NCBI GenBank assembly: GCA_966211795.1
Contig: CBIHNW010000025.1
Span: forward strand, 3,787-67,786
Length of the DNA stretch: 64,000 nt
Origin: an uncultured Bdellovibrio sp.
GTDB taxonomy: Bacteria > Bdellovibrionota > Bdellovibrionia > Bdellovibrionales > Bdellovibrionaceae
Reading direction: 5' to 3'
Shown: positions 47,474 through 60,248 of the stretch, piece after piece
Layout of the letters: the number at the start of each line of letters is the position of its first letter
Numbering within the stretch: position 1 is the stretch's first letter
Translations under genes and position numbers: made by a program
Notes under the pieces: generated by a model
The model's input: only the letters and a program-made list of their open reading frames with translations
What the model was told of the DNA's origin: nothing
Database searches by the model: none

Positions 47474-48723
47474 GAGGCCCCCTTTTTCTGTTTGAGACTT
47501 TGAAATTGATGGTAAAACTGATTGGCCTCGATGAAGAGGCTTTGCTGCTGATCCTTCACATCCTGCGATTGGCTTTGGCAGGATTGAAGCTCTTGCACCA
47601 GCTGCGCCAAGGCCGTCTGCACGGCCTGGTGATTGCTGTTTAAAATGGATTCCCAAATGGTGAACGAAGATCCACTGACCCGCAACAAGTCACTGATCAC
47701 ACCCGGAAAAAATTCAGGATTTTGCGCGAACGATTTGTCTTTCAAACACACGGCCATCACGCTCGATAAAAGCTGCGGCAGGTGACTGGTCCACGCCAAA
47801 GCTTCGTCGTGCTCGTGAGCCTGGGTCCAAAACGGACGAGCACCCACAGCCAAAGCCAAAGCTTCACAGGTGGCTTTGCAGGAATCGCTGACGGACCCGG
47901 AAGCGGTCCAACAAAAAACTTTGTTATAAAAAAGCATGCTATCGGCGTTCTGAAAGCCCGAAACCTCTTTGCCGGCCAGCGGGTGACCGCCAACATAGAC
48001 AAATGAACTTGGTTTTTCTTTCTGTCTTCGCAGATAGGTTTTCTGCATCAGCTCTTTGGTGCTACCGAGATCCAAAACCAAAGCGCCGTTTGGAAATGGA
48101 AATTCTAACAGGTACTGCGCATTGATGTCGACCGAAGCGGCCAGCACATAGATCGCGGCCGGATGCATGTGCGATGGATCCGTAATAAAATGCAAATTGG
48201 AAAACTGATTCTCTTCTTTCCACTGAAGAAAGCTTGCCAGCGGCAATCCCGGATCAAGCACTTCGAATCGCCAATGCGGCAGAGCTTCGCTTAACGCTAA
48301 ATAGAAGCTTGCCCCCAGAAGACCAAATCCGCAAAGCGCCACCGTCTGACTTTTTGAAAAATCAAGATGCGCTTTCTCGACCATGGTTTCGACCAGGGCC
48401 TTTTGCACATGAGCGCCTTCTAAAAAGCGAAAGCGCTCCACCAGGGTCATAAACAAAGCTTCCATCTCAGAAGGAGACAGCGGTCCTTCGCTACCAGCAG
48501 CCTGACGGACCTTTTGGCGGATGCGACCCTCGCGGGCCGGATCGTAAATCGGCATCTGGCGTGCACGCTTGTACTCGCCGACCGAAAACACCAGCTGAGC
48601 ACGCTCTTTGAGCAAAGCGAAAAGTTGCTGATCCACGCGGTCGATACCCTGGCGCAGGTCTTCCAAATTCAGATCCTGAGCCGAATGCTGCCCGGGCACT
48701 TTGGCTTTGAGCGCAAAAGTCAT
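47470..48723 (-). CDS. tyrA: bifunctional chorismate mutase (AroQ) / prephenate dehydrogenase
   Basis: N-terminal LRQGIDRVDQQLFALLKERAQLVFSVGEYK (CM type II). The remainder is a Rossmann-type PDH (VALCGFGLLGASF). Confidence 0.85.
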   Translation of the reverse strand: MTFALKAKVPGQHSAQDLNLEDLRQGIDRVDQQLFALLKERAQLVFSVGEYKRARQMPIYDPAREGRIRQKVRQAAGSEGPLSPSEMEALFMTLVERFRFLEGAHVQKALVETMVEKAHLDFSKSQTVALCGFGLLGASFYLALSEALPHWRFEVLDPGLPLASFLQWKEENQFSNLHFITDPSHMHPAAIYVLAASVDINAQYLLEFPFPNGALVLDLGSTKELMQKTYLRRQKEKPSSFVYVGGHPLAGKEVSGFQNADSMLFYNKVFCWTASGSVSDSCKATCEALALAVGARPFWTQAHEHDEALAWTSHLPQLLSSVMAVCLKDKSFAQNPEFFPGVISDLLRVSGSSFTIWESILNSNHQAVQTALAQLVQELQSCQSQSQDVKDQQQSLFIEANQFYHQFQSLKQKKGAS

Positions 48724-48988
48724 TGCAATCTCCCAATGGTTTTCGAGGGTAATGAGTCTCTTTCGGTGGATTCAGCCCAGAGTTAAAGAACCCTCGGCGA
48801 AAATGATGAGGCCAAACTGTCTACGCCGTCGACACATTCACCAACCTCGAAGCATTTGGATTTGAGAATGAAAATAGCCCCGATCGTCAAAAACCTCGTC
48901 AAAAGTTTTTTAAAATTCTCAGAATGAAAATCGGCACTATTTGATAATCATGCGATGACTTGATAAATTATTTTTATAATCCCCGCGT

Positions 48989-49567
48989 TCAAAAACAGTC
49001 CTTCGCCAAAAAGTCGATGTGTTCGCGAATATCCTTGGGCCACGTCTGCACCATGCGATCAAAGGTCTTTCGATCATTGGCAAAAAGGCTGCGAAGGGCC
49101 TCTTCGTAATTTGGAAAATCACCCGCCTTGGTCGTCATGAATTTATAAGTCGCGTTTTGCGATTGACGAATTTCGTCTTTCACCCGACTTTTCTTTCGCG
49201 CCTCTTCGACCAATTTTCGCAACGTCACCGAAGCTCCACCCGGTTGGGTCGCAAGCCACTCCCACTGGTTTGGCAAAAGCCCAATTTCCCTCGAGACCAC
49301 GCCCAGCTTCGGTCTGCCGGGGCCGACCTTCTTTTCTGGATTCTGCCTTTCCATCTCAGCCTGCAGGCGCTCGAGAAGTGTCTCGGACTTTCGCCGCAAA
49401 TCGATCTCCACCAGCTCGCTGGTTTGGTTATCGAACAGTTCAATCTCGGCTTCTTTGTTTTTCTTCAAGTACTCGAGACTTTTTTCCACCACGCTCAGCA
49501 GATGTCCGCTGCCGACTTTCTTATTGCCGGCAAATGCCGTGCATTCCCGATCTATTCTTGGCTCCAT
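48989..49567 (-). CDS. DUF2239-family protein
   Basis: CTAFAGNKKVGSG at the N-terminus and GPGRPKLGVVSREIGLLPNQWEWLATQPGGASVTLRKLVEEA match my memory of DUF2239 sequences. Confidence 0.65.
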   Translation of the reverse strand: MEPRIDRECTAFAGNKKVGSGHLLSVVEKSLEYLKKNKEAEIELFDNQTSELVEIDLRRKSETLLERLQAEMERQNPEKKVGPGRPKLGVVSREIGLLPNQWEWLATQPGGASVTLRKLVEEARKKSRVKDEIRQSQNATYKFMTTKAGDFPNYEEALRSLFANDRKTFDRMVQTWPKDIREHIDFLAKDCF

Positions 49568-49588: not shown

Positions 49589-49638
49589 TAATATTACCCG
49601 GGTCTTATTAGCTTGTCAATATCACCCGGGTCATATTA
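49589..49638. promoter_or_regulatory. pair of 22-bp ACCCGGGT-centred palindromic operator sites overlapping the DUF2239 promoter
   Basis: TAATATTACCCGGGTCTTATTA (49589-49610) and CAATATCACCCGGGTCATATTA (49617-49638). On the minus strand, TTGACA-17 nt-TAATAT lies between and over the sites, about 30 nt upstream of the ATG at 49567. Confidence 0.6.
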
Positions 49639-49760
49639 TCCCCGCGCCCTTCATCCTGCCAATTCTGGGCAATTTTCCAAATGTTTGTCAGGCTCTAAGC
49701 CTCAACTGGCGCCTCACCCCTTGGCACGATTTGCATTCCCTCTGAGCCCGAGAGGTTTTT

Positions 49761-50912
49761 ATGAAAAACTGGATGCAAGTTTCAAAATTGATGATGATCG
49801 CTGCGGCTTCAGCCGCTTTGGCAAACCCGCAAGCGCTCGCCGCTCAAAGCACGGTCACCTCCGTAGATCACCCGATCGCCACTCAAAGCTCGGTCACCTC
49901 CGTAGCCAATGCCGTCACCGCCGAATCCTTGCTGCAATCTCGCATTCAGCGAGAAGCCGACGCCGGCGTTCCGCTCAAACACCGATCGATTCTCACCAGG
50001 GGACAAGGACACCCTTGCAAAACACTCTTGATGTTTCCGGGCCTGTACGAATCACCGGCGTATTTGAAGGGCTTGACCAAGTATTATACGAGCCACGGCT
50101 TTAACGTCGTGGCTTTGGGCCTGAGCGGCCACTTTCGCGCCGGCGATCCCGAGATGCGCCACTTCAGTTATCAGGACTGGCGTCACGACACGGAAGAGGG
50201 CTTAAAGATCGCCAAGCTTTTGGGACAGCCCGTTTTCGTTTTTGGTTACTCGACAGGCGGTACGATGGCCGCGGATCTGGCCCTGAGATTCCCGAAAGAC
50301 GTTTCCGGATTGTTTTTATTTGCGCCCGCCCTGGATGTCACCGATTCCGTTCGCAACATGGTTCACCTGGGCTCCTTGCTCAACATCCAACCGGTCGCAC
50401 TTTGCAATAAAGAGAAGCTAAGCCCCATGTGCAAAGCCATCGCCCACGTCGCCGCTGGCGGCGTGCAGAAAGCCCGCCCACTTCTGGCAGAAGGACTGTC
50501 ATGGTCCCCGTTTGCTGGTCTACAAGTGCATCGTTACGTTGAAGCGATCTACAAAGAGCGTTCCGCCGCTTACACCACACCAACCGGCAGTGGCGATGGC
50601 GAGCGAAGCCTCAGTCGCAGCGAAGTCTTAAGCCAAATTTACGGCCAGATCTCAGCGCCAACTTTCCTCGTGGTCGATGAAGGAGATCTTACGGTCGCAA
50701 CACCCTTGTCAGAAAAGGTCTTTGAAAATCTGCGCGGCCCAAAAGACATGATCGTCTACAAAGAGAAAGACGGCATCGCCCACACCAACATCACCAAATA
50801 TGCCGAAGACAGTTTCAAAGGATCGCCAGAGCATTACAACCACTTCACCGACGATCTTGAAAAACGAATGGACCGCTTCCTCGACCAAGTTTCAATTTCT
50901 TGCGAAAAGTAA
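49761..50912 (+). CDS. secreted alpha/beta-hydrolase
   Basis: Signal peptide. Nucleophile elbow GYSTGG. An N-terminal 13-aa tandem duplication (QSTVTSVDHPIAT / QSSVTSVANAVTA). Confidence 0.75.
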   Translation: MKNWMQVSKLMMIAAASAALANPQALAAQSTVTSVDHPIATQSSVTSVANAVTAESLLQSRIQREADAGVPLKHRSILTRGQGHPCKTLLMFPGLYESPAYLKGLTKYYTSHGFNVVALGLSGHFRAGDPEMRHFSYQDWRHDTEEGLKIAKLLGQPVFVFGYSTGGTMAADLALRFPKDVSGLFLFAPALDVTDSVRNMVHLGSLLNIQPVALCNKEKLSPMCKAIAHVAAGGVQKARPLLAEGLSWSPFAGLQVHRYVEAIYKERSAAYTTPTGSGDGERSLSRSEVLSQIYGQISAPTFLVVDEGDLTVATPLSEKVFENLRGPKDMIVYKEKDGIAHTNITKYAEDSFKGSPEHYNHFTDDLEKRMDRFLDQVSISCEK

Positions 50913-58566: not shown

Positions 58567-58596
58567 ACAGGCTCCTCAAACGAATGAGCCTGTTTT
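58567..58596 (+). terminator. possible terminator hairpin
   Basis: ACAGGCTC-11 nt-GAGCCTGT followed by TTTC. The T-tail is weak. Confidence 0.35.
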
Positions 58597-58882
58597 CAAT
58601 TACGCTCTTTGTTTGGCGCACTAGCGAACCTAATCTTCGACCTTAATGCAGACATGCGATTCAGGAGATTTGAATGGACCTTCAGACGAACGAAGCAATT
58701 CAAATGGATTGCTAAACGCAGGTTCGTTGGCGAAGCCGAACTAGATGTACTCATCGTCTCCTCAATGGTTAACACCTCTAACCCACTATTGCAGTCGAGC
58801 GCAGGCGCACGAATGAGCTGAGCCTCGCCGAACTGCTGGGCGATCGCCATGCATTCCCTTTTGGGGTGTACGGAGTATTCTT

Positions 58883-58935
58883 AAACAATAACACCCGGGT
58901 AATATTGACTTTATATTACCCGGGTGTTATTGTTT
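58883..58935. promoter_or_regulatory. perfect 23-bp inverted repeat containing two ACCCGGGT operator sites, overlapping the methyltransferase promoter
   Basis: AAACAATAACACCCGGGTAATAT (58883-58905), then TGACTTT, then ATATTACCCGGGTGTTATTGTTT (58913-58935). TTGACT (58905-58910)-17 nt-TATTGT (58928-58933) is embedded. Confidence 0.65.
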
Positions 58936-58941
58936 AGGAGC

Positions 58942-59829
58942 ATGAAAGCTAATAATTTGAAAGCTGATGAGGGTCCCATGGGCGAATTCATTCAACATGT
59001 TTCTGATACCTCTGCTTGGGTCGCACACTATCGTGCGATTGAATCCGAGCGCCCCGACTCCTTATTTAATGATCCCTTTGCTCGAATTTTGGTGGGCGAT
59101 CATGCGTTGAGTGTCGAGAAACTACAGTCTGAAGCGACAAAGTGGACTCGTTGGACAGTCGTGATGCGCACTTACATCATCGACCAAATGATCCAGGATC
59201 TGATTTCAAAGGGAGTCACCACATTTTTAAATCTGGGTGCAGGACTGGATAGCCGCCCTTATCGGATGAGCCTCGGAGCTGAAGTTCAGTGGATTGAGGT
59301 GGATTTTCCTCACATCATCGAACACAAGCAAAAGATCCTTCAGAAATTCAGCCCGAGCTGCAAACTGGAAAGTATTGGTCTCGATTTGTCGAACCGGGCT
59401 TTGAGGCTTTCTCTGTTTGAAGAGCTTGCCCACAAGTATCCGCAGATTGCTGTTCTAACTGAAGGAGTTTTGCCTTATCTAACACAGGAACAGGTTTCAG
59501 ATCTATCGGAAGATTTGATTCAGCAATCCAGTTTCAAATACTGGATTTGCGAATACATCTCTAAGAAATCCTATCGATATTTAAAAGATCCAAAGCGAAT
59601 GAAAGCTTTGAAAAATGCTCCATTTGAATTTTACCCGGAAAATTGGATGGGGTTTTTTGAGGAGCGTGGATGGCATCTAACGCAATCGCAGTTTTATACC
59701 GAAATTTCTGAAAAACTTGGACGTCCAACGCCGATACCGAAAGTTTTCAAATTTTTTGAACTCGTAATGGGAAAAAAATGGGCAACCCCTTTTAAGCAAA
59801 TGTCTGGCTTTTTGCTTTGGGAAAGATAA
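58942..59829 (+). CDS. class I SAM-dependent O-methyltransferase (LCM / TIGR00027-like)
   Basis: TSAWVAHYRAIESERPDSLFNDPFA and the SAM motif FLNLGAGLDSRPYR. The start is uncertain (58942, 58978, or the ORF-track GTG at 58924). Confidence 0.8.
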   Translation: MKANNLKADEGPMGEFIQHVSDTSAWVAHYRAIESERPDSLFNDPFARILVGDHALSVEKLQSEATKWTRWTVVMRTYIIDQMIQDLISKGVTTFLNLGAGLDSRPYRMSLGAEVQWIEVDFPHIIEHKQKILQKFSPSCKLESIGLDLSNRALRLSLFEELAHKYPQIAVLTEGVLPYLTQEQVSDLSEDLIQQSSFKYWICEYISKKSYRYLKDPKRMKALKNAPFEFYPENWMGFFEERGWHLTQSQFYTEISEKLGRPTPIPKVFKFFELVMGKKWATPFKQMSGFLLWER

Positions 59830-59873: not shown

Positions 59874-60248
59874 ATGAAGAAGGCGCTCGATTGGCTAGCG
59901 CAATGTATATTTTTCGTACTTCTTTTTTATGTGACAGCCGCTCACGCCGAACCGATCAGCAGCGCAGGACTCATTTGGATCAATGCCAACGAGGCAATGA
60001 AGACTTGCGATCGGATGTTTAGTTCGAGCATCAAAAAGGCTGGTGAAATTGTTCTTGATATTCTGATAGATGAATCCGGATTGGTGAAAAATGCGACCCC
60101 AAATCAAAAGAAGTCTTCTATTAGAAATGAAAAATTAACTTCCTGTGTGATCAACTCTTTTAATGGCCACACTCTTCAAATGGATGCGACGGGAAAAGAG
60201 AAAACTATTTCGGCAACCTTTCAATTTCCAAGAAAATTTGACCAGTAA
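59874..60248 (+). CDS. small secreted protein, possibly with a TonB-C/AgmX-like C-terminal fold
   Basis: Signal peptide ending TAAHA|E. The pattern GEIVLDILIDESGLV...C...TISATFQF loosely resembles TonB_C-type domains. Confidence 0.45.
   Translation: MKKALDWLAQCIFFVLLFYVTAAHAEPISSAGLIWINANEAMKTCDRMFSSSIKKAGEIVLDILIDESGLVKNATPNQKKSSIRNEKLTSCVINSFNGHTLQMDATGKEKTISATFQFPRKFDQ

Follow-up and report, generated by a model that had tools for sequence, protein, structure and literature searches.

Paired palindromic sites at the promoters of a DUF2239 gene and a methyltransferase gene in an uncultured Bdellovibrio suggest DUF2239 as an autorepressor

Two promoters with paired palindromic sites

We analyzed a stretch of 64,000 nucleotides (the window) from an uncultured Bdellovibrio sp. 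(assembly GCA_966211795.1, contig CBIHNW010000025.1, positions 3,787 to 67,786 of the forward strand). It contains four palindromes of 20-22 bp with the core ACCCGGGT, grouped as two pairs on two sigma-70-type promoters. The first promoter belongs to a gene encoding a DUF2239 protein of 192 amino acids (48989..49567, minus strand; PF09998, E 3.9e-68), which we propose to be an autorepressor. The second lies upstream of a gene for an S-adenosylmethionine-dependent methyltransferase of the LCM/TIGR00027 family (58942..59829, plus strand), the proposed second target. The methyltransferase scored above the curated cut-offs of both families (PF04072: E 5.9e-30, 105 bits vs 22.3; TIGR00027: 116.7 bits vs 93.55).

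Each pair consists of a promoter-proximal and a promoter-distal predicted operator. At the DUF2239 gene the proximal site (49589..49610, TAATATTACCCGGGTCTTATTA, 23.5 bits) covers the -10 and most of the 17-bp spacer and is centred at about -15.5. The distal site (49617..49638, CAATATCACCCGGGTCATATTA, 21.6 bits) is centred at about -43.5 and overlaps the -35 with one arm by 3 bp. At the methyltransferase gene the distal site (58886..58907, CAATAACACCCGGGTAATATTG, 26.1 bits) is the top site of the genome and overlaps the -35 TTGACT with its arm, and the proximal site (58911..58932, TTATATTACCCGGGTGTTATTG, 24.5 bits) covers the spacer and five of the six bases of the -10. All four sites were found exactly where the initial annotation, made by reading the window alone, had placed them. 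The site 58911-58932 differs by one mismatch from the YAATA arm given there.

The core ACCCGGGT was present in four copies in the window, whereas 0.40 were expected. We then scanned the assembly of the window itself (4.64 Mb, 56 contigs, 50% G+C). Here, 30 copies of the core were found, and AT-rich arms were present at these four only (4/30). Compared with AATANNACCCGGGTNNTATT the four sites had 0, 0, 0 and 1 mismatches, and the next best site of the genome had 2 and three more sites 3.

A weight matrix trained solely on DUF2239 promoters from other phyla placed the four sites at the top ranks of the genome (26.1, 24.5, 23.5 and 21.6 bits), followed by a site of 18.9 bits. Five second-order Markov-simulated genomes yielded zero matches of at least 19 bits. 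Five of the weaker matches (18.9 bits or less) were examined; all of them were located within long open reading frames (ORFs), and no further regulon members of this genome were found among them. Since the sites are unique within 4.6 Mb and the weaker matches are intragenic, the motif is not a dispersed repeat. The motif scan of the whole genome, which had been suggested initially, returned only the four sites, all on the two promoters.

The promoters were called by consensus matches only and their start sites are predicted. The DUF2239 promoter (49619..49591, minus strand) is composed of TTGACA (49619-49614), a 17-bp spacer and TAATAT (49596-49591), with 10 of 12 consensus matches. The methyltransferase promoter (58905..58933, plus strand) reads TTGACT-17-TATTGT with an upstream TG (extended -10) and has 9 of 12 consensus matches. 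These values exceed those of shuffled sequence at both promoters, and the consensus scan recovered the same hexamers and spacers as annotated before. In both cases the palindromes overlap sigma-70 hexamers whose 17-bp spacer falls in the range of 16-18 bp.

The centre-to-centre spacing of the sites is 28 bp at the DUF2239 promoter and 25 bp at the methyltransferase promoter, in agreement with the initial annotation. Likewise, the proximal site spans the spacer and the -10 at both promoters as described there. The -35, however, had been placed between the two sites, and this is not strictly so, as the arm of the distal site enters the -35 by 2-3 bp at both promoters.

Distribution of the operator pair and of DUF2239

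Of 41 related genomes, nine carried DUF2239. One of the nine was a 41-amino-acid fragment at a contig end. The remaining eight were full-length, with the genome of the window included, and all of them had the pair upstream with TTGACA between the sites (8/8). In the genome G016 the pair precedes a two-gene MFS-DUF2239 operon rather than the DUF2239 gene directly. Relatives at 71-75% identity kept the operator pair in differing gene contexts.

Additionally, 80 DUF2239 loci were fetched with 4 kb flanks from a collection of species-representative genomes. They represent more than ten phyla and include Alpha-, Beta-, Gamma- and Deltaproteobacteria, Paenibacillaceae, Actinomycetes, Acidobacteriota, Planctomycetota, Chloroflexota, Armatimonadota, Obscuribacterales/Melainabacteria, Chlorobiaceae and others. 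In 77 of the 80 loci, sites of at least 17 bits were located upstream of DUF2239 or of an operon longer by one gene, and no such site was found elsewhere in the 4 kb flanks. In a few of the 77 the sites lie 0.65-1.4 kb upstream, before one intervening co-oriented gene. Among the three exceptions two carried degenerate copies (cores TACGGA and CCGTGG), and one locus was truncated at the upstream gene of the operon. Among the variant cores, TACGGA was seen in Geothrix, whereas some Acidobacteriota and Deltaproteobacteria had CCCTGG or CCGTGG. When 12 further genomes were scanned, the sole strong occurrence was usually the pair at DUF2239, with occasional extra targets.

The consensus of this cassette before DUF2239 genes and operons is ATTTTACCCGGGTAATATTGACa...ATTTTACCCGGGTAaAAT. 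We defined it by two palindromes of the AATTTTACCCGGGTAAAATT type 25-34 bp apart, where the proximal site holds the -10 in its downstream arm and the -35 is found at the arm of the distal site or behind it. In the most frequent layout the -35 occupies positions +9..+14 of the distal site and the -10 positions +4..+9 of the proximal site, where it reads TAAAAT, TATAAT or TAATAT. These offsets together with the 17-bp spacer result in a modal spacing of 28 bp. This spacing was found in 34 loci (consensus ATTTTACCCGGGTAATATTGACa...taATTTTACCCGGGTAaAAT) and a spacing of 29 bp in 12 loci, with a full range of 19-34 bp. In the 34-bp class of the Desulfobacterota the -35 lies wholly between the two sites. 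Both promoters of the window fit the definition obtained from other genomes. The DUF2239 promoter has the modal 28-bp spacing, whereas the methyltransferase promoter has a spacing of 25 bp and a -10 shifted by 3 bp.

We also asked whether pair and gene occur together in 151 high-quality genomes drawn from across the phylum Bdellovibrionota. A strict two-site pattern was counted here if it lay no more than 100 bp from the gene or preceded its operon. DUF2239 was carried by 17 of these genomes. The pair was present beside the gene in 11 of the 17 DUF2239-positive genomes and in none of the 134 DUF2239-negative genomes (Fisher p = 7.7e-13). All 11 pairs had TTGAC or a variant of it between the sites (TTGCA in G016). 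Other matches to the pattern in the 151 genomes had random spacers and occurred at a rate equal to that of a reversed-pattern control.

The genes next to DUF2239 were not conserved across the 80 loci, and clusters of flanking ORFs were lineage-limited only; this clustering was based on a simple ORF caller that is unreliable in GC-rich loci, and 22 loci were not parsed. A conserved neighbour acting as the true regulator or as an obligate partner was rejected on account of these lineage-limited clusters. No conserved adjacent gene for a toxin or a ParA-type ATPase was found in the 80 loci or in the closest relatives, and there were no PADLOC or PHROG matches pointing to a defence system or a phage. 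The comparison of the loci indicates that the cassette moves as a single gene with its own promoter.

The operator pair follows DUF2239 while the neighbours change, and it is absent where DUF2239 is absent, which argues for DUF2239 as the binder. As stated initially, no obvious regulator gene is adjacent to the sites; moreover, no other candidate factor is linked to the cassette and the neighbours differ even among relatives, so that DUF2239 is by a wide margin the most parsimonious candidate. A different, unlinked transcription factor that binds the palindromes and has DUF2239 and the methyltransferase merely as two of its targets is hardly plausible. It would account for the fact that no profile or fold search recognized a DNA-binding domain in DUF2239. 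However, such a factor would have to accompany DUF2239 in more than ten phyla and to vanish without it (none of the 134 negative genomes had the pair), although it is never encoded beside DUF2239, the neighbours are not conserved and the cassette moves as one gene plus promoter. Furthermore, DUF2239 is most conserved in a block with a GRPK arm and two helices behind it, and such a block would suit a site with a GC core and A/T arms.

Taken together, we consider it highly probable that DUF2239 is a sequence-specific DNA-binding repressor of its own promoter and, in this genome, of the promoter of the LCM-family methyltransferase 9 kb away. The autoregulation by DUF2239, which had been offered as speculation at first, thereby became the best-supported point, as the pair accompanies the gene across phyla and was not found in DUF2239-negative genomes.

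The DUF2239 protein and the proposed repression

The family match of the protein is full-length: it scores 229.3 bits, with a cut-off of 25, and spans positions 2-182 of the 182 in the profile. Clustered at 90% identity, DUF2239 comprises more than 5,500 clusters, and the laboratory organisms Caulobacter vibrioides and Deinococcus radiodurans are among its carriers. A literature search found no paper mentioning DUF2239, PF09998 or IPR018715, matches to the motif strings being cloning primers, and NCBIfam holds no model for the protein.

An alignment of 61 sequences across phyla (43-75% identity to the protein of the window) contained 24 invariant columns, 19 of them in residues 84-119. These are G84, R85, P86, L88, G89, V90, E94, L97, L98, P99, W102, W104, L105, Q108, G111, A112, S113, R117 and L119, and the block follows the pattern GRPKLGV..E..LLP..W.WL..Q..GAS...R.L. 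in total. The invariant block 84-119 parallels the nearly invariant core of the operator, so that the conservation on both sides would match.

Two AlphaFold2 monomer models were obtained (pLDDT 75 and 86, the latter with the 61-sequence alignment at 85.7). In the model from this alignment, residues 8-75 form an N-terminal alpha/beta domain, and the unstructured stretch 76-98 leads to a short helix (99-106). After a turn at QPGG come a long helix (111-147) and, at the C-terminus, a small helical bundle (154-188). Over residues 14-91 the family profile aligned weakly to the Smr domain of NEDD4-binding protein 2 (2vkc, E 0.3, not significant), with the conserved D-L-R-G opposite the Smr motif LDLHG.

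Binding by DUF2239 and the oligomeric state, an effect that is repressing and not activating, the matching of protein segments to parts of the operator, and a ligand are all inferred. According to this proposal DUF2239, presumably as a symmetric dimer, would bind the 20-bp palindromes with the consensus AATTTTACCCGGGTAAAATT. The downstream arm of the proximal site near -15.5 (GGGTAATAT or GGGTATAAT) would double as the -10, and the remainder of this site would fill the 17-bp spacer. As the arm is the -10 hexamer itself, an occupied proximal site would exclude RNA polymerase, and there is little doubt that the predicted proximal operator would act in this way. The distal site near -43.5 would abut or overlap the -35 TTGACA; its role is less certain.

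Within the protein, the invariant block 84-119 would serve as the reading head. Here, the AT-hook-like GRPK arm would fit the A/T arms of the operator, and the CCCGGG core would be read by the helices 99-106 and 111 onward, or by a dimer-dependent beta-ribbon formed from REVTLL. The N-terminal (8-75) and C-terminal (154-188) domains would be responsible for dimerisation and perhaps for the sensing of a small molecule that relieves repression. The arms of the operator serve at the same time as the edge of the -35 and as the -10 of the DUF2239 promoter, which would explain why the operator is almost unchanged across more than ten phyla.

The geometry of the sites bears on the mode of action. Among the loci the proximal site keeps a constant offset from the -10, whereas the offset of the distal site from the -35 varies. 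Since the proximal offset is fixed, coverage of the promoter is the conserved feature, and the position of the arms on the -10 and -35 points to occlusion of the promoter as the mode of repression. Centres that are 28-29 bp apart are separated by approximately 2.7 helical turns. Together with the range of 19-34 bp this does not imply face-to-face cooperativity. Of the dimeric repressor with cooperative binding that had been proposed initially, the symmetric, promoter-overlapping operators are thus supported, but cooperativity does not follow from the geometry.

Alternatively, the pair could form a two-state switch. A DUF2239 dimer at the distal site would then activate or stabilise RNA polymerase, and occupation of the proximal site at higher concentration would shut the promoter off. 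Activation from the distal site would resemble that by lambda cI at OR2, by class II activators or, from their distal box, by the controller proteins of restriction-modification systems. DUF2239 would still be the binder. The distal site overlaps the -35 by only 2-3 bp, a position typical of class II activation; the paired sites often differ in score (e.g. 21.6 bits for the distal and 23.5 bits for the proximal site of the DUF2239 promoter); and the pair is conserved although a single site over the -10 would suffice for repression. However, most loci already combine the consensus -35 TTGACA with a good -10 at the optimal spacing of 17 bp and should not need activation. In addition, the distal position relative to the -35 varies (spacings of 19-34 bp, including the 34-bp class with the -35 between the sites), which a fixed activating contact should not tolerate. 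We therefore regard the switch as rather unlikely.

Several observations weigh against DUF2239 as a repressor of both promoters. The distal centre near -43.5 could equally be an activating position. Neither monomer model has structure in residues 76-98, the putative DNA-reading segment, which includes the GRPK motif. When the central block (residues 78-136) was scanned against Pfam (E up to 10), DUF2239 alone was returned and no helix-turn-helix (HTH) or ribbon-helix-helix (RHH) family. Sequence-profile searches of the PDB with the whole family and the central block (E up to 10) gave nothing relevant, and Foldseek found no match with E < 1 in the PDB for either model. Membership in the RHH superfamily was dropped after hhalign of the central block with 11 RHH_1 domains of relatives gave a probability of 0.9% over 10 aligned columns; the query alignment was shallow (Neff 1.7), which gives this comparison low power. 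There was also no signal of covariation between protein and operator: the reading block is unchanged in the loci with variant cores, and both partners are nearly invariant.

The orthologues of the methyltransferase belong to these observations as well. Their loci of 2-4 kb (73% identity in G003, 38-57% in six other genomes) contained no site of at least 15 bits, and none upstream. The promoter would consequently have been captured in this lineage only, and the second target is seen in this genome alone. The region upstream of the 73%-identical orthologue cannot be aligned.

With regard to the RHH comparison, hhalign with RHH_1 gave probabilities of 1-5% across the central, N-terminal and C-terminal blocks, and PF01402 (RHH_1) did not match the DUF2239 genes of the 41 genomes. 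The disorder of residues 76-98 followed by two helices in the models is compatible with an RHH fold, but not diagnostic. Despite the failed profile test the RHH-like sequence pattern remains suggestive.

The two sites of the methyltransferase promoter are exact reverse complements of each other and form a perfect 53-bp palindrome (58883..58935) with 23-bp arms and a 7-nucleotide centre, TGACTTT. As single-stranded DNA it would fold into a perfect stem of 24 bp (-24.7 kcal/mol, z = -9.8). The pair could accordingly be a recent and perhaps non-functional inverted duplication, at most a cruciform or recombination hotspot, with only the DUF2239 promoter being controlled. The exact reverse complementarity over 23 bp, unlike any pair at a DUF2239 promoter, suggests a recent origin, and the orthologues and the paralogue of the methyltransferase are without sites. 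Nevertheless, we consider this improbable. The two sites score best in the genome (26.1 and 24.5 bits), and the -35 TTGACT at +9..+14 of the distal site as in DUF2239 promoters, the 17-bp spacer and the extended -10 inside the proximal site form a functional layout. If DUF2239 binds such sites at all, this promoter would be bound and occluded. Based on its two best sites of the genome and the -35 offset identical to that of the DUF2239 promoters, we regard the methyltransferase promoter as quite probably functional.

A general link between DUF2239 and the methyltransferase was rejected. Besides the orthologues, the LCM-family paralogue in the same genome (C1:438226-439062, 46% identity) had no operator sites in its 3.8-kb locus, and a tblastn search with the methyltransferase found no homologue near DUF2239 in the 80 foreign loci. 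Of the regulon linking both genes that had been proposed at the outset, the two-promoter regulon is thus supported here, but it is specific to this genome.

When compared with known systems, DUF2239 resembles the RHH autorepressors (Arc, Mnt, CopG, MetJ, omega and ParD-type antitoxins) as a small protein that would act on its own promoter through symmetric sites overlapping the -35 and -10. It also shares a basic N-terminal arm in front of a strand-helix-helix-like pattern (REVTLLP..W.WL....GAS..LRKLVEEA), and the disorder of the reading segment in monomer models would be expected if folding needs the dimer. On the other hand, DUF2239 has about 190 amino acids with two extra domains, no RHH match by profile or fold search and no toxin or partition partner. 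Its sites are 20-bp palindromes 25-34 bp apart, whereas RHH proteins use tandem repeats of 8-11 bp.

The C proteins of restriction-modification systems and lambda cI at OR1/OR2 are similar in being dimeric autoregulators with two adjacent palindromes on their own promoter, one near the -35 and one over the -10 or spacer. However, these are canonical HTH folds of the Xre type, none of which was matched by DUF2239. The C-box consensus differs, and DUF2239 is unlinked to restriction-modification genes or a prophage.

The GRP arms of Hin-type invertases and AT-hooks lie in the minor groove at A/T tracts beside the core. By analogy, the invariant G-R-P-K/R in front of the helices and the A/T arms flanking the core recall the Hin/Gin invertases, Tc3-type HTH domains with a GRP(R/K) arm and the AT-hook (RGRP). 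Unlike Hin and HTH_7, DUF2239 matched no HTH family, has only two helices after the arm with a non-helical stretch of 12 residues between, and lacks a recombinase domain. With the TetR/QacR and MarR repressors it would share autoregulation, small lineage-specific regulons of transporters or small-molecule-modifying enzymes and an extra domain that could sense a ligand. It differs by an unrelated fold, by genes that mostly stand alone without an adjacent target and by an operator that is essentially invariant across phyla.

Based on sequence and analogy, DUF2239 would work like an autorepressor of the Arc/CopG or the C-protein type, and we assign it to neither family. Autoregulated repressors whose palindromic operators overlap the promoter are known as a kind of system, which does not hold for the protein family and its DNA-binding module. 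Only tentatively, DUF2239 might be the founder of a new family of transcription factors. The GRPK arm and two-helix module would then be a new fold or a derivative of RHH or HTH that diverged beyond recognition. Gene and promoter would form a horizontally spread, self-limiting cassette that occasionally captures promoters of small-molecule modification or export, here that of a carboxyl/O-methyltransferase. The protein would sense a ligand and repress a response to xenobiotics or metabolites, and with its operator it would represent a ready-made, host-independent pair of repressor and operator.

Neighbouring genes, further targets and implications

The start of the methyltransferase gene is ambiguous. 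The ATG at 58942 has an AGGAG only 1 nucleotide upstream, and with a predicted transcript start at about 58940 the mRNA would be leaderless. At the alternative ATG 58978 (Met13) a GAGGG Shine-Dalgarno sequence is located 4 nucleotides upstream, and homologues align only from residues 13-17. ATG 58978 may be the true start. The methyltransferase stop is followed after 44 nucleotides by an ORF of 124 amino acids (59874..60248, plus strand) with a signal-peptide-like N-terminus and no family match. No terminator-like site was found between the two. The ORF may be co-transcribed with the methyltransferase and hence be a member of the regulon.

On the minus strand an 84-amino-acid ORF (58596-58850) without Pfam or PHROG match begins at a distance of 36 bp from the distal operator of the methyltransferase gene. 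Should this ORF be a genuine gene, it would share the control region with the methyltransferase and be transcribed in the opposite direction.

A gene for a secreted alpha/beta hydrolase (49761..50912, plus strand; Hydrolase_4, E 8.9e-16) is divergent to the DUF2239 gene and has the 193-bp intergenic region in common with it. No promoter-like site for the hydrolase was found on the plus strand of this region. Control of the hydrolase gene by the operators is possible. At 49739-49763 a hairpin, CCTCT-GAGCCCG-AGAGG, is followed by TTTTTATG and pairs the GAGAGG Shine-Dalgarno sequence of the hydrolase gene (ATG 49761). This hairpin is terminator-like on the plus strand and could be an element of translational control or a terminator for upstream transcription.

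On the other side of the DUF2239 gene, a search of the region 48700-49020 revealed no terminator-like site from the stop of this gene (48989) to the beginning of an aromatic amino-acid operon (48723, minus strand). Transcripts of the DUF2239 promoter may therefore read through into this operon.

Elsewhere, different genes were found as operon partners of the cassette or as extra targets. In Bdellovibrio an MFS transporter is the operon partner. An AAA_33 P-loop kinase in Polaromonas-like genomes and a FAD_binding_3 monooxygenase in Bradyrhizobium were found as partner or extra target. In eight loci of Paenibacillaceae alpha/beta hydrolases follow DUF2239; these are not homologous to the hydrolase of the window at E 1e-3. 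A DUF1330-like protein of approximately 141-143 amino acids, with a Pfam score below the gathering cut-off, adjoins DUF2239 in four loci (L084, 2752-3177; L089, 4623-5054; L091; L100). The carriers are Bradyrhizobium, where the gene is located upstream in an operon, two Chloroflexota and a Paenibacillus. Additionally, Kaistia granuli (L133, G049:C8) has a second, unlinked full pair with 28-bp spacing at 1471-1518, which is located 50-100 bp upstream of a gene for 116 amino acids without Pfam match. Together with the methyltransferase these partners point to small-molecule modification and export as a common theme, and hence to a repressor that may respond to a ligand.

If the proposed function is true, a widespread domain of the DUF type would receive a concrete and directly testable role. 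Most regulator-operator pairs drift. An operator and promoter that are near-identical from Firmicutes to Proteobacteria to Acidobacteriota are unusual. The window contributes the clearest unlinked second target with the full two-site layout, and its analysis adds the presence/absence statistics as well as the account of site conservation by arms that serve as promoter elements. In this Bdellovibrio the predicted regulon would be minimal, with one repressor and two promoters, and the substrate of the methyltransferase may relate to the inducing signal.

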